Assembly (NCBI GenBank): GCA_965208575.1
Contig: CBDBOV010000002.1
Location: 672,001 to 736,000, forward strand
Length of the DNA stretch: 64,000 bases
Origin: Spirochaetia bacterium
Lineage (GTDB): Bacteria; Spirochaetota; Spirochaetia; SZUA-6; Bin103
Reading direction: 5' to 3'
The notes below the pieces were generated by a model. The model saw nothing but the letters and a program-made list of their open reading frames with translations. It made no database searches and had not been told where the DNA came from. Numbering within the stretch: position 1 is the first letter of the stretch; every line of letters starts with the position of its first letter. Positions 31,256 through 44,972 of the stretch are shown in pieces. The translations under genes were made by a program, and so were the position numbers.

Positions 31256-31612
31256 GTGGCATCTCCCCGCTTCTCCACCGATGTTCTGGACCGGGCGATC
31301 GAACGGCGCCGCCGCGCCGCTGAGCAACTCAGGACGGCGACGAGAGCGCGCCTGGCGCACGCGCTGGAGGCCGCGCCGGTGCCGGTCGAACGCGCGATCA
31401 TCTTCGGTTCCATAGATCGTCCCGGCCACTTCGACGCCAACTCCGACGTCGACGTCGCCGTCGGCGAGCTTCGGGCGCGCGACTACTTCACGCTCAAGAG
31501 CTACCTGGAACACGCCCTGTGCCGGGAGGTAGACCTGGTAGAGTTCGACCGCTGCCACTTCGCGGCCAGCATCCGGCGCACCGGTACGAAATGGACGAGG
31601 CACGCTACGTAG
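31256..31612 (+). CDS. Minimal nucleotidyltransferase (MNT) antitoxin; start uncertain
   Basis: IFGS-x10-DVD motif, EVDLVE. Confidence 0.85.
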   Translation: MASPRFSTDVLDRAIERRRRAAEQLRTATRARLAHALEAAPVPVERAIIFGSIDRPGHFDANSDVDVAVGELRARDYFTLKSYLEHALCREVDLVEFDRCHFAASIRRTGTKWTRHAT

Positions 31613-32058
31613 TCTTCGCCGCCGAAGCGCGTGCTCAACTGCGGCAGGTCGCTCTCATCCACGAGCGCATCGACCACCGCGAGCGGGAGAGCGGCGTGGC
31701 CGGACTGGAGAGTCTCGCCTACCAGCTTCACAACCTGTACGGCGCGATCGAGGAGTTGTTCGAGCTGGTGGCGGCGGCGTTCGAGAATCAGCTTCAGGGT
31801 GGAGGCGGGTACCACATCGAGTTGCTCAGACGCATGACGATAGCCGTCGACGGCGTCCGTCCGCGGGTAATTTCTGATCACACCCTGGCGGCGCTCAACT
31901 CATTGCGCGGCTTTCGCCACGTGTTTCGTCATGCCTACGGCGGCGGACTGGATCGGCGCAGGATCGCCCTGCTCGTCGAAGACGCGCGCGCGGTGCGCGA
32001 GCCGCTCGCCGCCGAGGTGCAGGCGTTCGTCGCTGCCGTGGCCCCCGCCGATTCCTGA
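31591..32058 (+). CDS. HEPN (HepT-like) ribonuclease toxin
   Basis: LHNLYGAIEELF, YHIELL, FRHVFRHAY (Rx4H plus Tyr); overlaps the MNT gene. Confidence 0.85.
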   Translation: MDEARYVVFAAEARAQLRQVALIHERIDHRERESGVAGLESLAYQLHNLYGAIEELFELVAAAFENQLQGGGGYHIELLRRMTIAVDGVRPRVISDHTLAALNSLRGFRHVFRHAYGGGLDRRRIALLVEDARAVREPLAAEVQAFVAAVAPADS

Positions 32059-32091: not shown

Positions 32092-32712
32092 TTGCGTAGC
32101 CGGCACATGGCGATGGCACTTGAAGAGTTCCGGCTCCTGAAGAGGAAACCGGGGTGGAAGTACGAGTATTGGAACGGTGAGGCACACATCTCGCCGGGAC
32201 ATCGGGTGGTCACCATGTCCCTCGACATAGAGCCACGCTCCTGCCAAAGCCCTTGTCAGATCGGGCCCGTGGTGACGCGGCGCGAAGCGGAGTTGATTGC
32301 CGCCTACTTGGCGGCCTTCAGAGACACCATCGAGTACTGCGATTGGGAGGAGGAGAGAATCGCCGATTCGGCCAACAAGAGCGTCGTCGAATTTCTTGCC
32401 GGTGAACGCGGCGATCCTCTCGCGGCGTCACGCCTGGCTCTGATCTGCCATCCCGAAGCCGACGGGAGAGTGGTGGGTGGTGCTGCCCTCCTGGTCGAAA
32501 CGGATGACAAATGTCCACTCTTGGATATGCTCTTCGTTGCTCCGGAGTGGCAACGCCGGGGGATAGCCACCGCCTTGGTGTCGTCGGCGGTCAATCAATT
32601 GCACGGCCGGGGATACAGGCGTCTGAAGAGCCGGTACATGCTCGGCAACGACAAGAGCCGGGCCTGGCACGAAGGGTTCGGATTCTCTCCCATCCCCGAA
32701 GGTAGACCATAG
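32092..32712 (+). CDS. GNAT acetyltransferase
   Basis: LFVAPEWQRRGIAT motif A, N...WHEGFGF. Confidence 0.85.
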   Translation: MRSRHMAMALEEFRLLKRKPGWKYEYWNGEAHISPGHRVVTMSLDIEPRSCQSPCQIGPVVTRREAELIAAYLAAFRDTIEYCDWEEERIADSANKSVVEFLAGERGDPLAASRLALICHPEADGRVVGGAALLVETDDKCPLLDMLFVAPEWQRRGIATALVSSAVNQLHGRGYRRLKSRYMLGNDKSRAWHEGFGFSPIPEGRP

Positions 32713-32836
32713 AGCCCCGCAGGGGTCCGAACGCCGGTAACAGCAGAACTGGCATGGCCGGAATCGACGACCGACAGCTTGCAGGAGCGCACGACTGGCG
32801 GCCAACTCCGCACGCGGCCACGGCGTGGAGGCGGCG

Positions 32837-35449
32837 CTACCGCGACGGCTCGGGCGGCGGAGCTGCTCCGTAGCCGTGGCACATGCGGTGGTGTGCCAGG
32901 CACGCGAGAGCCAGGTTCTCCGGCTCCGGGCCGCCCCCGTCGGCAACCGGCAGCAGGTGGTGGATCTGTAGCAGGTGGGACGAATTGCAGCGGCGACCGG
33001 TGAGCGGGTCCCGATAGCAGCAGCGCCCCCCGTCGCGCAGCCAGACGTGACGCCGGACAGCCGCCGGAATGGAGCGCCGCGGCGGCGACCGGCGCGGGCC
33101 GAGCGGAGCATCGCGGGTGCACTGCGGCGATGCTCCCCCCGGTGAGCCGCCCGCCCCACGCGCAGGCGGCACGCCGCTGACCAACTTCGGCGCCGCAGCC
33201 GTGGCCAACCGGATCGGCATGGCACCAGTACCGTCGGCGGAGCCGTCGCCGGCCAACTTCGGCGCCGCAGTCGTGGCCGGCCGGATCGGCGTGGCACCAG
33301 CGCCGTCGGCGGGGCCGCCGCTGACCAACTTCGGCGCCGCAGTCGTGGCCGGCCGGATCGGCGTGGCACCAGCGCCGTCGGCGGGGCCGCCGCTGACCAA
33401 CTTCGGCGCCGCAGTCGTGCCCGGCCGGATCGGCGTGGCACCGGCGCCGTCGGCGGGGCCGCCGCCGGCCAACTTCGGCGCCGCAGCCGTTGCCGGCCGG
33501 ATCGGCGTCGCATCAGCGCCATCGGCGGGGCCGCCGCCGGCGCTCCGACCCTCCGGCGCCGCAGCAACGGCGGGCGGGGCCGAAGCAGCGCCACCCGCGC
33601 GGGTGCCAACTGCCCGTGTACCGCCCGCCGGGGCGGCGGGCGCAACGCCGCGCACCGGGCGAGCGTTGGGGGACGCCGCCGCCCGCGGCAGCTCCCCGGC
33701 GGACGCGGGCGCGCCCCGTGGCGCCGGAGTATCGCCGCCCCCACCCACGGCGGCCGCCGCCACGACCGAGGGTGTGCTGGTCCGCTCCCGCCGCGACGAT
33801 GCTGCCGTGCCGCCCGAACGCCCCCGCCTGCCACCGCCGCCGCGCGGGTCGTGCCGCGCCACCGCCTCGCGCACCAGCCGCGCCACCAAGTCCCCCCACG
33901 ACATGCGCGGGTCGACGTGCGACAGCCAGTTCTTCAGTTGGCGCAGTCCCTGCTCGCACTCCTGGTCGATGCTCACCTTCAACGTGTAGCGGTCCGGCGC
34001 CACCGCACGCAGCGTGTCGCGCGGCGGCGCCACCTGCGGAGCGGCACTGGCCAGCAGGCCGGCGACCTGGCGCGTGGTCATGCCGGCGGCCTGCTCGATC
34101 AGCTCGCGCTGCCGCCGCGGGTGCAGCAGCGCGGCGGCGGACAACGGCCCGGCGGACCGCTCGGGGCTGGAACACGGTTCCGGGTTGGAACAAAGTTCCG
34201 GGTTCCGATCACCCCGCGACGGCGCCGGTGCGAGCGCAGCGGTGCGCCGCGGCTCCGATGCGGCCACGACCGGCAACGGGACCGGCTCGGCGCCACTCGC
34301 CGGCGGTGGAAGTGGCGCGGCCGGGCCTTGGTCCGAGGAGGCCACGGCGGGACCGGGAGCGCGCAACGGTGCCCGTGCAGCCGCGTGGCTCGCCACCGGC
34401 ACCACCGGCGTGGTCGCCGCCTCGTTACCCGTGAGCCCGGGCCGCGGTACACGCCCCGGCGCCGCGGGCGGTGGCGCGTGCAGGGTGGTGGGCGTCGAAG
34501 CCGGTGCAGCGCCCGAGGTGGCGGCACTCGAGTCCAATCGGCCCACCGGCTGCGCACCCGCGGCTGCCGGGCCGGCACCGACTGCCGCCGAGTCGTCCGA
34601 CGACGGCCTGCAACGGTCGCTCTCCGCATGCCGGTCCCCGCGGCCTCCGGCGTCACCGGGCGACCGCGCCACCGGCCCGTCCGGCGGTCGGCTGCAGCCG
34701 TCGCTCACGGTGTGCCGGTCTTCGCGGCCCCCGGCGGCACGGGACGACCGCGCCGCCGAGTCGTCCGACGATGGCCTGCAACGGTCGCTCTCCGCATGCC
34801 GGTCGTCGCGGCCTCCGGCGTCACCGAGCGACCCCGCCACCGGCTCGTCCGACGATGGTCTGCAACGGTCGTTCCCGGTATGCCGGTCCCCGCAGCCCCC
34901 GGCGTCACCGAGCGCCCCCGCCTCCTGTTCGACGGCGGCCACGCCGGGCCGCGCCGATGCCGTCCCCGCCGCGGCACCGGCCATCCCCGCTCCCGACGCT
35001 TCGCCATCCTGGTCTCCCGCTCCGCCCGGCGCAGCAGGTAGCCCATGCAGACCTTGGCAGCGCTCCTGATCGACGGGCGCGCTCGCTCTCCTGCACTGGC
35101 GCTCGGCGGCGCCAAACGCGGTCTCCAACTGCGCCGCCGACGTCACACTCAGCTCGCCGCTGTGCAGCATGGCCCGCACCCAGCCATGCCGCCGGCACAG
35201 CCTCATGGTCTGAATACGCCGTTGCGCGGCCGCATCGGTGAAGCGCAACTCCCGCACCGCGTAGTCGAACAGGCTCGAGAACCCGCGCCGCAGCGCCAGC
35301 CCGCGACGGTCGATCTCGTCGAGATGGTCCAGGATGTGCACTTCGAGGCCGCGCTGGTTGGCCGCCAGGCGCCTGGTCTGCTCGAGGAGCTGCTGATCAC
35401 CGAGTGAGTTGAAAGGTCGTCTGCCGGTCCCGCCGGTCATGTTTAACAT
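32837..35449 (-). CDS. DUF222-like N-terminus / repeat linkers / C-terminal HNH endonuclease (870 aa)
   Basis: HLDEIDRRGLALRRGFSSLFDY N-domain; C-terminal VWLRDGGRC...C...IHHLLPVADGG...NLALACLAHH. Confidence 0.88.
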   Translation of the reverse strand: MLNMTGGTGRRPFNSLGDQQLLEQTRRLAANQRGLEVHILDHLDEIDRRGLALRRGFSSLFDYAVRELRFTDAAAQRRIQTMRLCRRHGWVRAMLHSGELSVTSAAQLETAFGAAERQCRRASAPVDQERCQGLHGLPAAPGGAGDQDGEASGAGMAGAAAGTASARPGVAAVEQEAGALGDAGGCGDRHTGNDRCRPSSDEPVAGSLGDAGGRDDRHAESDRCRPSSDDSAARSSRAAGGREDRHTVSDGCSRPPDGPVARSPGDAGGRGDRHAESDRCRPSSDDSAAVGAGPAAAGAQPVGRLDSSAATSGAAPASTPTTLHAPPPAAPGRVPRPGLTGNEAATTPVVPVASHAAARAPLRAPGPAVASSDQGPAAPLPPPASGAEPVPLPVVAASEPRRTAALAPAPSRGDRNPELCSNPEPCSSPERSAGPLSAAALLHPRRQRELIEQAAGMTTRQVAGLLASAAPQVAPPRDTLRAVAPDRYTLKVSIDQECEQGLRQLKNWLSHVDPRMSWGDLVARLVREAVARHDPRGGGGRRGRSGGTAASSRRERTSTPSVVAAAAVGGGGDTPAPRGAPASAGELPRAAASPNARPVRGVAPAAPAGGTRAVGTRAGGAASAPPAVAAAPEGRSAGGGPADGADATPIRPATAAAPKLAGGGPADGAGATPIRPGTTAAPKLVSGGPADGAGATPIRPATTAAPKLVSGGPADGAGATPIRPATTAAPKLAGDGSADGTGAMPIRLATAAAPKLVSGVPPARGAGGSPGGASPQCTRDAPLGPRRSPPRRSIPAAVRRHVWLRDGGRCCYRDPLTGRRCNSSHLLQIHHLLPVADGGGPEPENLALACLAHHRMCHGYGAAPPPEPSR
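33181..33540 (-). repeat. 72-bp coding tandem repeat, about 5 units (24 aa, GGPADGAGATPIRPATTAAPKL)
   Basis: Visible in the DNA and the translation. Confidence 0.9.
34585..34920 (-). repeat. 84-bp coding tandem repeat, about 4 units (28 aa, GDAGGRxDRHAESDRCRPSSDDSAA)
   Basis: Visible in the DNA and the translation. Confidence 0.85.
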
Positions 35450-35958
35450 GTCTTAAATATAACACTGGTCTGTAGATAGCACTTTCTTGCAGGTCCTCGA
35501 CCCGGTACCGGCAGCGCCCGTGGAGCGCGAATTGGCGGCTCCAGGGGCACGCGCTCGGCCACTTGACGGGCGCACACCATTGCCGGACTTCACGGCCCGC
35601 CAGGGGCCTTCAGCGGCAGCGGAAAAGTGCGTCAACCCCTGCGCCCGATTTTCTGCAGTTATTTTGGTGCAGGTCGAACTCCGGCCACCGCGGCACGCAG
35701 GAACCACCCCACGCCGCAAAGATGGTCCGACCCTCCCGGTACGTGAGCCCTGACGACCACCGGCGCCGCGGCAGCCTGCCCGGTCCCCCATCTGCTGCCG
35801 TGCCGACCGGAGCGGTGGGGTGAGACCGGTGCGTGCCGACTTCGTCAACCGCCACCACCGCCTTTCGCAATCGCACCGGCGCCCGCAGGTGCAAGAGGAC
35901 GCGTGTACCCCGATTGCGGTAGCATCGCGCCTGAGAGAGCGAGAGGGGGAGCATCGTC

Positions 35959-39468: not shown

Positions 39469-40115
39469 GCGCCCGGGACGAAGGTGAGGTAGCGCAGCAG
39501 GGTGCCGGCCAGCGCCATGAGCCGGGAGAACACCGGTACGCCGACGATGCCGAGCAGGATCAGCCCGAGCAGCAGGTAGGAGCCGAAGCGCGCGTTGTAG
39601 TGGCGGTAGGCGTCGGCGGCGCGCGCCGGCAGCAGGTGGGGCAGGATGTAATGGCCGTCGAGCGGGCCGAGCGGGATCAGGTTGAACAGCATCAGCAGCA
39701 GGTTGACCCGCGCGAGCAGCACGAAGAAGGTGACCGGCCCCTCGGCAAAGAACAGGTCCACGCCGGCGGCGCGCAGCAGCAGGAACAGGTTCCAGGTAAG
39801 CACGGCGAGCAGCAGGTTGGCGGCCGGGCCGGCGGCGGCAATCCACAGATCGGCGCGCGGAGTGCGGAAGTTGCGCGGGTCGGTGGGCACCGGGCGGGCG
39901 TAGCCGAAGCCGACCAGGACCACCATCGCCAGGCCCATCGGATCGATGTGGCGCACCGGGTTGAGGGTGAGCCGGCCCGCGTACTCGGCGGTGCGGTCGC
40001 CGTTCAGCTTGGCCACGTAGGCGTGGCCGAATTCGTGCACCGACAGCGATGCGATCAGCGCCGCCACCAGGAGCCCGAACAGCAGGACCTCGCCCCGAAA
40101 CAACAGCTCGATCAT
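39465..40115 (-). CDS. Site-2 protease (M50) family protein
   Basis: HEFGH, AAGPAAN, FNLIPLGPLDG. Confidence 0.92.
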   Translation of the reverse strand: MIELLFRGEVLLFGLLVAALIASLSVHEFGHAYVAKLNGDRTAEYAGRLTLNPVRHIDPMGLAMVVLVGFGYARPVPTDPRNFRTPRADLWIAAAGPAANLLLAVLTWNLFLLLRAAGVDLFFAEGPVTFFVLLARVNLLLMLFNLIPLGPLDGHYILPHLLPARAADAYRHYNARFGSYLLLGLILLGIVGVPVFSRLMALAGTLLRYLTFVPGA

Positions 40116-40243
40116 CGCGACTCACGCCCCTCCAACAGCCAACGGCAAGACCTCGCCTCGAAACAGCAGCTCGATCATCGCGTCGCGAGCGCCTCCAACG
40201 TGAACGGCGGCCCCTCGCCGCGCAATAGCAGCTCGATCATCGT
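40085..40243 (-). repeat. Three tandem copies (62-63 bp period) of the S2P gene start, ATGATCGAGCTG...GGCGAG
   Basis: ATGs at 40240, 40178 and 40115, each followed by a MIELL(F/L)RGE-coding sequence. Confidence 0.85.
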
Positions 40244-41172
40244 GCGGCGGATGCCTCGAGGTCATGGCGCAGCACCACGTGGTGGTAGCGGTCCGCGGTG
40301 TACAGGGAGCCCGGCGCCCACGCCAGCGGCCCGATGATGGCGCGCCGGCCGAGGCTGACGTAGCCGGCGGCGATGGCGGGTTCGAAGGTGCCGTCCGGTG
40401 CGATCACCTGGATGCGGTAGTTGGAGCGGTCGGCCACGTACACGCGGTCGCGGTCGTCCACCACCAGCCCGGACGGGAAGATGAACGCGCCGCCGCTGCG
40501 CCCGCGCTCGCCCCACTCGGCCACGAACGCGCCCTCGGCGGTGAACTTCTGCACCCGGTGGTTGTGCGCGTCCGCGACCCACACGTTGCCGAACGAGTCC
40601 ACGGCAACGGCGCGCACCTCCCGGAACTCGCCGGGCCGTGGACCCTCGCGTCCCCAGGCGGCGAGGAAGGCGCCGTCGCCGGTGAAGCGCTGGATGCGGT
40701 GGTTGCCGGTATCGGCCACGTACACGCTCCCGTCCGGCGCCGCGGCGATCGCGCGCGGGCGGGCGAACTGCCCCGGACCGCTGCCGTTGCCGCCCCAGGT
40801 GGTCAGCAACTCGCCGGCGGCGCTGAACTTCTGCACCCGGTGGGTGGTGAACTCCACCGTGTAGACGGCCCCGTCGCCGCCGACGGCAAGCCCGCTCAGC
40901 CCGAGGAACTGCCCCGGCTCCGATCCCCAGGAGCCGAACGCGTCCACGAACTCGCCGTCGCCGGTCAGCTTCTGCACGCGGTGGTTGTCGGTGTCGGCGA
41001 CGTACAGAAACCCGGCGGCGTCGACGGCAATGTGCGCCGGGGTAAAGAACTCACCCGGCTCGAACCCGCGCGAACCGATAAGGGCTATCCTCTCGTCGTT
41101 GACCGCGCAACCCGCCCCGGCCACGACCAGGGCGAACAGCAGCAACAAACGGGTAGCGGCAATACGACGCAC
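40237..41172 (-). CDS. NHL-repeat beta-propeller lipoprotein
   Basis: Lipobox AGC; repeats YVADTxNHRVQKF...WG..G..PGQF. Confidence 0.9.
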   Translation of the reverse strand: MRRIAATRLLLLFALVVAGAGCAVNDERIALIGSRGFEPGEFFTPAHIAVDAAGFLYVADTDNHRVQKLTGDGEFVDAFGSWGSEPGQFLGLSGLAVGGDGAVYTVEFTTHRVQKFSAAGELLTTWGGNGSGPGQFARPRAIAAAPDGSVYVADTGNHRIQRFTGDGAFLAAWGREGPRPGEFREVRAVAVDSFGNVWVADAHNHRVQKFTAEGAFVAEWGERGRSGGAFIFPSGLVVDDRDRVYVADRSNYRIQVIAPDGTFEPAIAAGYVSLGRRAIIGPLAWAPGSLYTADRYHHVVLRHDLEASAAR

Positions 41173-41335: not shown

Positions 41336-42080
41336 TCAATCGCCGCCCCGGTGGTGCGCGAACCAGGGGATGGCGAAGCCTACCAGCGCCTGTGCGGACA
41401 GCAGCGTGCAACAGGCTTGGCCGGCCAATCCGGTGCGGGTAGTCGTGTCCTGCCGCCCAAAGGCAGCGCCTACCTCATCGAAGTCGTGTTCATCAATGTC
41501 GGGCTCGCGGTAACTCACCCATCGCCGGACCCCGTCGACCAGGACCGGCGCGCCGGCCGGCTTGGTCTCCTGGTGGTCGCCGAGCGCGCGCCGTTCGGCA
41601 AAATGCAGCATGGTGTTGGTCCGGTGCCCGACCTTGCGCCCGACCCCCAGGAGCAAGACGTGGCCACCCAAGTCGTGGACCACCGACAGAGGCGATCCTT
41701 CGCCCATCGGATCCTCAAGCCGCTGGGCGGCGACGATCGGTGCCGCGTACCGCCCGAGGGCCGCGAACGAACAGGACGGATGATTGCTGCGAACCGCATC
41801 TGGCCAGGTACGGAATAACTCCGGGATAACGCCGATGAAGGTCGTGGGAGTGACGGCGGCGTCGAACGCCGGCATCGTCGCTCGGATCATCTCCCGCCAG
41901 GCAGACGGCACCGGCGGATTCTCCCATCCCGCCGGGTCGGACAGGCCCGTGGAATGAGCGGGCATGACTATGGTGCCGGTCGTGCCTACTGCCTGCAGCA
42001 GCGCCCGGATCACGGCAACCGGCCCGCCGCAGACCCAGCCGATGGCGCTCAACGAGGAGTGGACCAGCACGACCATCCCT
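41336..42080 (-). pseudogene. AAC(3)/YokD-family N-acetyltransferase, 5'-truncated at the element boundary
   Basis: Begins at GMVVLVHSSLSAIGWVCGG; GTIVMP, RSNHPSCSF, NTMLHFAE; the usual N-terminal segment is replaced by element DNA. Confidence 0.75.
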
Positions 42081-42288
42081 CTGCACCAAAAAAACTGCAG
42101 AAAATCGGGCGCAGGGGTTGACGCACTTTTCCGCTGCCGCTGAAGGCCCCTGGCGGGCCGTGAAGTCCGGCAATGGTGTGCGCCCGTCAAGTGGCCGAAC
42201 GCGTGCCCCAGGAGCCGCCAATTCGCGCCCCACGGGCGCTTCCGGGACCGGGTCGAGGACCTGCAAAAAAGTGCTATCTACAGTCCAG

Positions 42289-42306
42289 TGGTATATTTAA
42301 GGTATG
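42289..42306 (+). promoter_or_regulatory. Extended -10 promoter (TGnTATATT) 6 nt before the ATG; probably leaderless
   Basis: TATATT at 42292-42297; same motif and spacing in copy 1 (35456-35464, minus strand); no Shine-Dalgarno sequence. Confidence 0.55.
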
Positions 42307-44811
42307 ATGAACATGACCGGCGGGACCGGCAGACGACCCTTCAGCTCACTCGGCGATCAGCAGCTCCTGGAGCAGACCCGGCGTCTGGCGGCCAACCAGC
42401 GCGGCCTCGAAGTGCACATCCTGGACCATCTCGACGAGATCGACCGTCGCGGGCTGGCGCTGCGGCGCGGGTTCTCGAGCCTGTTCGACTACGCGGTGCG
42501 GGAGTTGCTGTTCACCGATGCGGCCGCGCAACGGCGTATTCAGACCATGAGGTTGTGCCGGCGGCATGGCTGGGTGCGGGCGATGCTGCACAGCGGCGAG
42601 TTGAGTGTGACGTCGGCGGCGCAGTTGGAGACCGCGTTTGGCGCCGCCGAGCGGCAGTGCCGGAGAGCGAGCGCGACCGTCGATCAGGAGCGCTGCCAAG
42701 GTCTGCATGGGCTGCCTGCTGCGCCGGGCGAAGCGGGAGACCAGGATGGCGAAGCGTCGGGAGCGGGGATGGCCGGTGCCGCGGCGGGGACGGCATCGGC
42801 GCCGCCCGGCGTGGCCGCCGTCGACCAGGAGGCGCGGTCGCTCGGTGACGCCGGAGGCTACGGGGCCCGGCACACCGAGAGCGACCGTTGCAGCCGACCG
42901 CCGGACGAGCCGGCGGCGCGGTCGCTCGGTGACACCGGCCACGGGGACCGGCATGCGGAGAGCGACCGTTGCAGCCCATCGTCGGACGACTCGGCGGCAG
43001 TCGGTGCCCGCCCGGCAGCGGCGGGTGCGCAGCCGGTGAGCCGATTGGACTGGAGTGCCGCCACCTCGGGCGCTGCACCGGCTTCGACGGCCGCCACGCG
43101 GCACGCGCCACCGCCTGCGGCGCCGGGGCGTGTACCGCGGCCCGGGCTCACGGGCTACGAGGCGGCGGCCACGCCGGTGGTGCCGGCGGCGAGCCACGCC
43201 GCTGCGCAGCACCTCGGCGCCCGGCATGGCGATGCGCTGCCGGCACGGCGGGAGCCGAGCGGAGCCGCCTGGCACTGTCCGGCACCCGTGCGCGCTCCCG
43301 GTGTCGCCGTGGCCTCCTCGGACCAGGGCCCGGCGGCGCCACTTCCGCCGCCGACGAGTGGCGCCGAGCCGGAACCGTTGCCGGTCGTGGCCGCACCGGC
43401 GCCGTCGCGGGGTGATCGGAACCCGGAACGGTGTTCCAACCCGGAACCGTGTTCCGGCCCGAAGCGGCCCGCCGGGCCGGTGTCGGCCGCCGCGCTGCTG
43501 CACCCGCGGCGCCAGCGCGAGCTGATCGAGCAGGCCGCCGGCATGACCACGCGCCAGGTCGCCGGCCTGCTGGCCAGTGCCGCTCCCCAGGTGGTGCCGC
43601 CGCGCGACACGCTGCGCGCGGTGGCGCCGGACCGCTACACCTTGAAGGTGAGCATCGACCAGGAGTGCGAGCAGGGGCTGCGCCAACTGAAGGACCTGCT
43701 GTCGCACGTCGACCCGCGCATGTCGTGGGGGGACCTGGTGGCGCGCGTGGTGCGCGAGGCGGTGGCGCGGCACGACCCGCGCGGCGGCGGTGGCAGGCGG
43801 GGGCGTGCGGGCGGCACGGCAGCATCGTCGCGGCGGCAGCGGACCCGCACACCCTCGGTCGTGGCGGCGGCGGGCGCCGGGGAGCAACCGCGGGCCGCGA
43901 CGACCCGCAACGCTGCCGGGGTGCGCGGCGTTGCGCCCGCCGCCCCGACGGGCGGTGCAAGGGCAGTTGGCACCCGCGCAGGTGCCGCTGCTTCGGCCAC
44001 GCCCGCCGTTGCTGCGGCGCCGGAGGGTCAGAGCGCCGGCGGCGGCCCTGCCGACGGTACTGATGCCACGCCGTTCCGGGCGGCCACGGCTGCGGCGCCG
44101 CAGTTGGCCAGCGACGGCTCCGCCGACGGTGCTGATGGGACGCCGACCCGGCCCGCCACGAGTGCGGCGCCGAAGTTGGCCGGCGGCGGATCTGTCGACG
44201 GCGCTGATGCGACGCCGATCCGGTCGGCCACGGCTGCGCCGCCGAAGTTAGTCAGCGGCGGCTCCGCCGCCGGCGCTGGTGCGACGCCGACCGGGTCGGC
44301 CACGAGTGCGGCGCCGAAGTTGGTCAGCGGCGGCTCCGCCGATGGCGCTGGTGCCACGCGCATCCGGTCGGCTACGACTGCGGCGCCGAAGTTGGCCGGC
44401 GGCGGCTCCGCTGGCAGCGCTGATGCGACGCGGATCCGGCGGGCTACGGCTGCGGCGCCGAAGTTGGCCAGATGCGTGCGGCCTGTGCGTGGTGCGGGCG
44501 GCACGGCGGGGGGAGCATCGCCGCGGTGCACCCGCGATGCTCCGCTCGGCCCGCGCCGGTCGCCGCCGCGGCGCCCCATTCCGGCGGCTGTCCGGCGTCA
44601 CGTCTGGCGGCGCGACGGGGGGCGCTGCCGCTATCGGGACCCGCTCACCGGTCGCCGCTGCAATTCGTCCCACCTGCTACAGATCCACCACCTGCTGCCG
44701 GTTGCCGACGGGGGCGGCCCGGAGCCGGAGAACTTGGCTCTCGCGTGCTTGGCGCACCACCGCATGTGCCACGGCTACGGACCAGCTCCGCCGCCCGAGC
44801 CGTTGCGGTAG
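42304..44811 (+). CDS. DUF222-like N-terminus / repeat linkers / C-terminal HNH endonuclease (835 aa)
   Basis: Paralogue of 32837-35449; near-identical N-terminal, middle (RYTLKVSIDQECEQGLRQLK) and HNH domains. Confidence 0.88.
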   Translation: MMNMTGGTGRRPFSSLGDQQLLEQTRRLAANQRGLEVHILDHLDEIDRRGLALRRGFSSLFDYAVRELLFTDAAAQRRIQTMRLCRRHGWVRAMLHSGELSVTSAAQLETAFGAAERQCRRASATVDQERCQGLHGLPAAPGEAGDQDGEASGAGMAGAAAGTASAPPGVAAVDQEARSLGDAGGYGARHTESDRCSRPPDEPAARSLGDTGHGDRHAESDRCSPSSDDSAAVGARPAAAGAQPVSRLDWSAATSGAAPASTAATRHAPPPAAPGRVPRPGLTGYEAAATPVVPAASHAAAQHLGARHGDALPARREPSGAAWHCPAPVRAPGVAVASSDQGPAAPLPPPTSGAEPEPLPVVAAPAPSRGDRNPERCSNPEPCSGPKRPAGPVSAAALLHPRRQRELIEQAAGMTTRQVAGLLASAAPQVVPPRDTLRAVAPDRYTLKVSIDQECEQGLRQLKDLLSHVDPRMSWGDLVARVVREAVARHDPRGGGGRRGRAGGTAASSRRQRTRTPSVVAAAGAGEQPRAATTRNAAGVRGVAPAAPTGGARAVGTRAGAAASATPAVAAAPEGQSAGGGPADGTDATPFRAATAAAPQLASDGSADGADGTPTRPATSAAPKLAGGGSVDGADATPIRSATAAPPKLVSGGSAAGAGATPTGSATSAAPKLVSGGSADGAGATRIRSATTAAPKLAGGGSAGSADATRIRRATAAAPKLARCVRPVRGAGGTAGGASPRCTRDAPLGPRRSPPRRPIPAAVRRHVWRRDGGRCRYRDPLTGRRCNSSHLLQIHHLLPVADGGGPEPENLALACLAHHRMCHGYGPAPPPEPLR
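44035..44466 (+). repeat. 72-bp coding tandem repeat, about 6 units
   Basis: GCGCCGAAGTTGG-like motif recurs every 72 bp. Confidence 0.9.
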
Positions 44812-44972
44812 CGCTGCCTCCACGCGGTGGCCGCGTGCGGAGTTGGCCGCCCGTCGTGCGCTCCTGCAAGCTGTCTGCCGTCGATCCCGGCCATGCGAAT
44901 TCTGCCGTTTCCGGCGTTCGGACCCCACGTGGGGTTGAGCAACGGTCGGGCGGCGTGCCACGGTGACCGACG

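Follow-up and report, generated by a model that had tools for sequence, protein, structure and literature searches.

The locus carries two inverted copies of an HNH element

The window, by which we mean the whole stretch of 64,000 nucleotides that was analysed, contains two inverted elements of ~2.85-3.15 kb each, copies A and B, which carry a gene for an HNH protein; the segment under study is their 5' part. The two copies are organized as follows (IR, inverted repeat; IS, insertion sequence; nt, nucleotides; aa, amino acids).

42081..42292, + strand: the segment, promoter-proximal part of the 5' non-coding region of HNH element copy B; 5'-truncated, without left IR and without target duplication
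42100..42122, + strand: Box A, an A-rich stretch followed by GGGGTTGAC; its TTGAC (42118-42122) is invariant in 12/12 groups
42123..42274, + strand: spacer of fixed length, 152 nt in copy B and 150-154 nt in 42/43 relatives
42257-42260, + strand: conserved GGAC box, inside the spacer
42275..42306, + strand: proximal promoter, with a TATCT box (42275-42279), an extended -10 TGGTATATT (42289-42297) and the ATG (42304-42306)
42304..44811, + strand: ORF B, 835 aa, with an N-terminal domain of ~125 aa, low-complexity linkers, a middle domain and a C-terminal HNH
44812..44925, + strand: 3' non-coding region of copy B, ending in an IR (...GGCGTTCGGACCC) that resembles the left end of the IS
35450..35672, - strand: the same proximal segment and promoter in copy A, with Box A at ~35631-35653 and the -10 at 35456-35461
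35673..35877, - strand: distal 5' module of copy A, absent from copy B, ending in the left IR tip GGTGCGATTGCGAAAGG... with a second TTGAC
32723..35449, - strand: rest of copy A, with ORF A (32837-35449, 870 aa) and a 3' non-coding end with an IR whose tip lies at ~32723

Alignment with MAFFT of 42050-42330 (+) against 35423-35703 (-) gave 9 mismatches and no gaps between 42081-42292 and 35461-35672, with 100% identity over 42093-42198, exactly as the original prediction had described from manual comparison, and placed the start of the homology between the copies precisely at 42081. A repeat search in the window reported the pair as an inverted repeat of 858 nt, 95% complementary (34815-35672 / 42081-42938), and within the genome the similarity of the segment is far above chance (E 1e-99). 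The difference in length between ORFs A and B arises because tandem coding repeats of 72 and 84 nt vary in number.

Between copies A (32723-35877) and B (42081-44925) lies a 6.2-kb block made up of ordinary genes (F420H2-dependent quinone reductase, SDR, ABC permeases, M50 peptidase, NHL-repeat protein and an aac(3)-like gene), and recombination between these inverted copies could invert the block. The aminoglycoside 3-N-acetyltransferase-like gene (41336-42076, - strand; Pfam E 2e-80) starts 5 nt from the copy B boundary at 42081, too close to fit its own promoter; its expression would need to start within, or run through, the 5' segment of the HNH element, on the antisense strand. Three tandem 59-nt units (40078-40261, spacing 62-63 nt, 66-85% identity) lie between the M50 peptidase and NHL-repeat genes, and the 3' end of copy A is adjoined by a HepT-like (toxin-antitoxin) gene (31519-32058, + strand) followed by a GNAT acetyltransferase gene (32092-32712).

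The HNH elements form repeat families in this genome and its relatives

The 223 nt upstream of the ATG occur in 11 genomic copies with 81-100% identity, plus one 41-nt fragment, in a genome of 6.5 Mb and 67% G+C. In 9 of these 11 copies the homology continues upstream of the position equivalent to 42081, 6 of them running the full ~205 nt to a common IR tip and 3 being partly truncated, and it is absent only from copy B and from the copy at C4:592722; copy B is therefore 5'-truncated and the true end lies ~205 nt further out, at ~35877 in copy A. This divides the fallback reading of the original prediction, a DNA recognition end: the segment does begin with a box that resembles the inner part of a transposon IR, but the real end is the one further out, missing in copy B. 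On the other side of the gene, ~115-170 nt beyond the stop codon are conserved up to ...GGCGTTCGGACCC in the copies of this subfamily (subfamily 1). The distal 205-nt module was also considered as an independent repeat, and this was rejected, as it occurs only with subfamily-1 HNH copies. A 20-nt indel in the distal module (equivalent to 35680-35700; copies on contigs C6, C3 and C2) splits the copies into two sets.

A second HNH subfamily in the same genome comprises ~13 copies with an analogous upstream module; its members (for example C6:1192862-1194894 and C2:2904-5251) have an N-terminal domain 46-51% identical, the same ends and target duplications of 9-10 bp. Taken as a whole, the HNH family occurs in 21 of the 24 genomes from the bacterial family, and a single genome can have as many as 58 matches. 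The 5' segment itself was found in 4 of the 40 relatives searched, all from the same genus (16, 4, 3 and 1 matches, 68-91% identity); 3 of the 10 other genomes in the genus hold further copies. Sequence-pattern matches came only from records named 'MAG: Spirochaetia bacterium' and 'MAG: Actinomycetes bacterium' and from two metagenome contigs, and plasmid and phage collections gave no match to 42081-42700.

Loci fetched from other genomes (40 in all) fall into different promoter layouts. The Box A-spacer-promoter module, which we call class II, is present in 15 of them, from two genera. Another 15 have the class I layout, in which TTGACT stands 17 nt from the same -10 and ATG and the module is absent, and the remaining 10 have another or an unclear layout. 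Class I relatives (L058-L068, L089, L090, L094, L096) thus present a leaderless promoter of the form TTGACT-N17-TATACT-N6-ATG without the 150-nt module, and three class I elements examined, among them those of genomes G010 and G011, showed no convincing pair of inverted repeats. Four loci (L071, L072, L075, L083) have neither promoter layout and carry a GAGGAGG-type ribosome-binding site before the ATG.

The element ends are those of an ISKra4-type insertion sequence

A terminal motif, GGGTG(C/G)GAA(C/T)GC..AAAGCGG, is found at both ends of the HNH elements of subfamilies 1 and 2 and also at both ends of a 1,438-bp IS in the same genome, and the ends of IS and HNH elements share 83-96% identity over 25-48 nt, with E-values down to 4.9e-10. 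The IS has 9 copies at 100% identity and one at 99.9% (for example C4:92504-93941, and a tandem pair at C4:511220 and 512666), from which it has apparently been active recently; two internal-deletion derivatives of ~570 bp lie at C5:155539 and C4:140191. Its ORF of 434 aa scored 198.8 bits against the NCBIfam ISKra4 transposase model NF033572, over positions 18-422 of 422, just below the curated cut-off of 205.

Exact direct repeats of 8-11 nt flank 16 of the 18 two-ended elements (IS 8/8, subfamily 2 5/5, subfamily 1 3/5), compared with 0 of 306 mismatched-flank controls having a repeat of at least 7 nt; the lengths read as 8-11 nt, for duplications of about 9 bp, because the terminal G/C run is ambiguous. 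Copy B has neither a left IR nor a target duplication, consistent with its truncation. The copy A locus is empty in the related genome G001, where the flanks lie 238 nt apart compared with 3,209 nt here; a nucleotide-exact empty site was not found in G001, G006 or G007, whose intergenic DNA is so diverged that only presence or absence can be read. Among the IS copies 5 of 8, and among the HNH elements 3 of 10, had a -35-like pentamer TTG[AC][CA] at 9-18 nt beyond an end, compared with 2.6% of 20,000 random sites, the pentamer alone being scored.

The HNH elements showed no transposase: tblastn with the IS transposase gave only matches with E>2, and 7 other long frames had no Pfam family. They are therefore classed as non-autonomous cassettes. 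Since they share their ends with the IS and have equal target duplications, we infer that they are cassettes resembling mobile insertion cassettes (MICs), which the IS transposase would move in trans.

The HNH protein lacks the parts of IscB

ORFs A and B have a single Pfam match, the C-terminal HNH motif. The protein consists of three conserved parts (the N-terminal ~125 aa, the middle domain and HNH) joined by low-complexity linkers with tandem repeats, and HNH-family ORFs in this genome range from 804 to 1016 aa. The tandem coding repeats of 72, 84 and 81 nt in the linkers (43967-44542, 33172-33609, 34584-35003, 42856-42998) vary in number between copies. The NCBIfam model guided_IscB, whose cut-off is 175 bits, gave 20.9 and 19.8 bits and aligned over its positions 183-233 alone, which are the HNH part; in Pfam and NCBIfam searches neither RuvC nor any other part of IscB was detected, nor was a DEDD transposase. 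Among PDB sequences the closest was a group II intron maturase, through its HNH motif (E 8e-4).

The N-terminal domain matched no Pfam family, DUF222 included (E<=10 for separate domains), and its profile had no match among PDB sequences; DUF222 was likewise absent from the full protein (E<=0.01) and from 12 family members (E<=1). The same profile retrieved 10,469 representative clusters at E<=0.001, and in a sample of 16 distant relatives 12 had HNH and none had DUF222. The sole name borne by the database matches is 'hypothetical protein [Spirochaetaceae bacterium]'.

Invariant boxes at a fixed distance frame a variable spacer

The anatomy of the segment was derived from 43 sequences, which represent two genera and fall into 12 groups. 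Box A is similar to positions 13-35 of the right IR of the IS, with 18 of 23 positions matching by eye; short blastn matches between the two (22-24 nt at 82-83%, E 0.24-2.9) are weak taken alone. The TTGAC of Box A is invariant in all 12 groups, and the GGAC and TAT.T boxes are nearly so, the latter being a second conserved box upstream of the -10 with the sequence TAT(C/T)T (42275-42279). In most groups TTGAC is flanked by a conserved A-rich tract on its upstream side and a conserved T-tract on its downstream side. The distance from TTGAC to the -10 is 172-176 nt in 42 of the 43 sequences, and the sequence of the spacer, in its central ~125 nt, is poorly conserved between the 12 groups.

The -10 begins 12 nt before the ATG in 38 sequences and 13 nt in the other 5, with no Shine-Dalgarno sequence, a position that implies a leaderless mRNA. 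The segment is therefore not the 5' UTR of this mRNA, and on this point, the placement upstream of the ORF promoter, the original prediction held in all 43 relatives.

Three further candidates for the segment were tried and rejected. Coding function was discarded because there is no codon periodicity (column entropy by codon phase 0.52/0.49/0.50), stops occur in most frames and any one frame is open in at most 18 of the 43 sequences. The spacer as a MITE with terminal IRs of its own (copy B ends in GCACTTTT...AAAAGTGC) was rejected when only 3 of 43 sequences beat 95% of interior controls, with a mean of 2.44 against 2.18. A canonical sigma-70 promoter starting at the internal TTGAC was found in none of the 12 groups, either by scan or by eye.

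Constraint was assessed by comparing identity at -203 to -44 with identity at four-fold sites of the adjacent conserved domain. The original prediction had set the conservation of the segment against that of synonymous sites of the ORF, and the answer is mixed: between species the two are about equal (0.71 against 0.74, this genome compared with G001), while within the genome the segment is somewhat higher, both for the main copies (0.94 against 0.90) and in comparisons with two divergent genomic copies (0.84 against 0.74); within G001 the values are 0.89 and 0.90. Identity so near that of four-fold sites means that most positions are not under strong sequence constraint, and much of the segment may be unconstrained in sequence. 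The invariant TTGAC, the GGAC and TAT.T boxes and the fixed length are constrained; they are kept between groups whose N-terminal domains are only 40-50% identical.

These values bear on an explanation in which most of the segment would be functionless, hitch-hiking with a recently amplified element, its copies possibly made uniform by gene conversion, so that only the last ~60 nt, the promoter, would matter. The closeness to four-fold sites among the main copies, within G001 and between the two genomes, together with the poorly conserved central ~125 nt, is what this explanation expects. The invariance of TTGAC across the 12 groups, the TTGAC-to-(-10) distance maintained despite their divergence and the excess of the segment over four-fold sites in the divergent genomic pair all speak against it, and we regard it as a rather doubtful account of the segment.

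No conserved RNA structure is detected in the segment

The original prediction had raised the possibility that the segment encodes a structured, guide-like RNA of the IscB/HEARO type; a scaffold RNA for the HNH protein of the omega RNA or IS110 bridge type was considered with it. In favour of such an RNA are a conserved non-coding region adjoining an HNH ORF in a mobile element, the weak HNH-motif match to the IscB model and three complementary blocks, all of which are indeed present in the window copy:

42106-42113 / 42179-42186, + strand: complementary block, CGGGCGCA / TGCGCCCG
42118-42123 / 42185-42190, + strand: complementary block, TTGACG / CGTCAA
42112-42117 / 42147-42152, + strand: complementary block, CAGGGG / CCCCTG

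The pairing of these blocks, however, is not kept in the G001 relatives, and the fold is not better than that of shuffled sequences. Rfam, HEARO included, gave no match at E<=10 in the region or at E<=1 in 8 related loci. RNAalifold on 28 sequences returned a consensus of -17.09 kcal/mol with a covariation term of -1.23, which against column shuffles corresponds to z of +0.99 (+) and +1.25 (-); ribosum scoring brought these values to -0.28 and -0.39. One helix (columns 101-106 / 169-174) swaps C-G for G-C between two clades (13 and 11 sequences), which favours a structure, but pairs changed on both sides numbered 3 where shuffles gave 2.6, and 276 of the 500 shuffles reached that number, so that no covariation was significant; the higher cell counts in this test are what a two-clade alignment gives. 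The 43 class II sequences yielded no consensus structure under default scoring, and 38 non-redundant ones under ribosum gave z -2.26 and -2.14 on the two strands, a mild and strand-symmetric signal. Single-sequence folds compared with dinucleotide shuffles had mean z of -0.02 and -0.30 over 17 sequences, and the window copy gave +0.59 (+) and -1.34 (-).

With no Rfam match, a fold like that of shuffles and no covariation, a structured scaffold RNA of the IscB/HEARO or bridge type is very unlikely, and we consider it largely refuted computationally. The protein without RuvC/IscB parts and without a DEDD transposase, the IRs and ~9-bp target duplications of the elements and the class I relatives (15 of 40 loci), which lack the module altogether, weigh in the same direction.

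RNA data for the locus come from a sponge metatranscriptome, the sole RNA run with part of it. A 364-nt contig covers 35489-35847 with ~94% identity at a depth of 6.9, similar to the depths of the ORF contigs (10-11), from which it is separate, and of contigs over neighbouring genes (3-5.5); the run is kept as contigs (Logan), which show neither strand nor transcript ends, and the library may include DNA. As a multi-copy element breaks the assembly graph at its borders, the end of this contig ~24 nt from the repeat tip is an expected break, and the contig joints and uncovered parts are uninformative on excision or inversion. The contig would agree with the 5' region being transcribed; carried-over DNA together with breaks between contigs accounts for it just as well.

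This contig is one of the arguments for a different alternative, in which the segment would be transcribed into an RNA acting without a conserved fold, either as a sense leader from the distal module or IR or as an outward antisense transcript from near the ORF promoter. By base pairing, an RNA of this kind might control either the HNH gene or the transposase. The slightly better fold of the antisense strand in the window copy and the conserved A-rich tract and T-tract around TTGAC would agree with it, as would a weak terminator-like hairpin with a U-rich tail on the antisense strand (42126-42109), whose site is also present in copy A. This hairpin has 5 pairs, 3 of them G-C; it is nevertheless about what shuffles provide (a mean of 0.4, with 1 in the real sequence), and on visual inspection several groups have not kept it. 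Moreover, no sigma-70-type promoter was found in the segment on either strand, and the metatranscriptome contig, with the reservations given above, may derive from DNA. We regard this alternative, too, as rather doubtful.

Discussion

The explanation that we favour, with moderate confidence, is that the segment is cis-acting control DNA of a leaderless HNH gene in an ISKra4-type cassette, and that the IR-derived box at its front may bind transposase. Under this explanation the IS transposase would move the HNH cassettes in trans, and the segment would control expression of the HNH gene through DNA-binding proteins and not through an RNA. The likeliest candidate binder would be the transposase at the IR-like Box A, or else the element's own protein. 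From the position of the -10, transcription is expected to begin at the A of the ATG, and in copy B the real transposon end would have been lost.

A more specific form of this explanation is that the module is a split promoter, with a -10 that lacks a -35 box and an IR-derived TTGAC 150-154 nt further upstream, the two halves being joined by a protein or by removal of the spacer. The fixed spacing suggests it, as does the fact that deletion of the spacer would recreate TTGAC(T)-N16-TATAYT, a class-I-like promoter. A protein recognising -35-like boxes might wrap or loop the spacer of fixed length, or excise it, the candidate being a promoter-targeting ISKra4 transposase. The sequences can also be aligned through a CTCAA box, and terminal repeats are not a general feature of the spacer; we consider this form quite improbable. 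If true, it would tie expression of the HNH nuclease to a transposase being present.

These findings take away an attractive candidate for a new RNA-guided HNH system, one that the data do not support. They point instead to gene cassettes for an HNH nuclease that rely on the ends, and presumably on the transposase, of an ISKra4-type IS, multiplied to dozens of copies in a MAG lineage recorded as Spirochaetia/Spirochaetaceae, and to an N-terminal domain that defines a very large uncharacterised family of 10,469 clusters.

Comparison with known systems

In several IS families the promoter lies partly inside the terminal IR and is regulated by transposase binding. The present elements are alike in having a -35-like TTGAC ~30 nt inside both IRs of the IS and in the IR-like Box A, and in having class I relatives whose leaderless HNH gene has TTGACT at 17 nt from its -10. 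They differ in that the class II TTGAC is 172-176 nt from the -10, and the transposase would here be a candidate regulator.

With IscB/HEARO the elements share an HNH motif in a mobile-element protein and a conserved non-coding region 5' of the ORF; unlike those systems, they have no RuvC/IscB architecture (20.9 bits against 175), no Rfam match and no conserved fold. OMEGA elements of the IS200/IS605 type have ends without inverted repeats or target duplication, whereas the HNH-element family and the IS have IRs, with the flanking repeats of 8-11 nt in 16 of 18 elements. The DUF222-HNH '13E12 repeat' proteins, known in mycobacteria as REP13E12, are multi-copy and combine a helical N-terminal part with a C-terminal HNH. 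The genes described here are likewise multi-copy and encode proteins with a helical N-terminal part and a C-terminal HNH, but Pfam DUF222 is not detected in the HNH-element protein or in the relatives sampled.

The closest parallels are with cassettes mobilised by an IS. MIC231 is a MIC with a cognate IS, IS231. As in MICs, IS-type IRs flank a passenger gene without transposase, and the duplications match those of the cognate IS, which is present in the same genome; the passenger here is a gene for a large HNH protein, with ~25 copies per genome and a long conserved upstream module, and the mobilisation in trans is deduced from shared ends and duplications. The concept of non-autonomous IS derivatives, or MICs, mobilised in trans appears in two abstracts (PMC4337579, PMC5444012).

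The ISKra4 group is described by Guerillot et al. 2014 (PMC3942029) as comprising Mutator-like (p-MULT 4) DDE elements with IRs of 18-39 bp and direct repeats of 8-9 bp. The same authors mention some members that insert ~16 bp upstream of sigma-A -35 boxes and report four ISKra4 elements with extra genes of unknown function (PMC3942029). The HNH elements fit this group in IR length and in their 8-9-bp direct repeats, and they differ from it in having no transposase of their own, this being encoded by the separate 1,438-bp IS.
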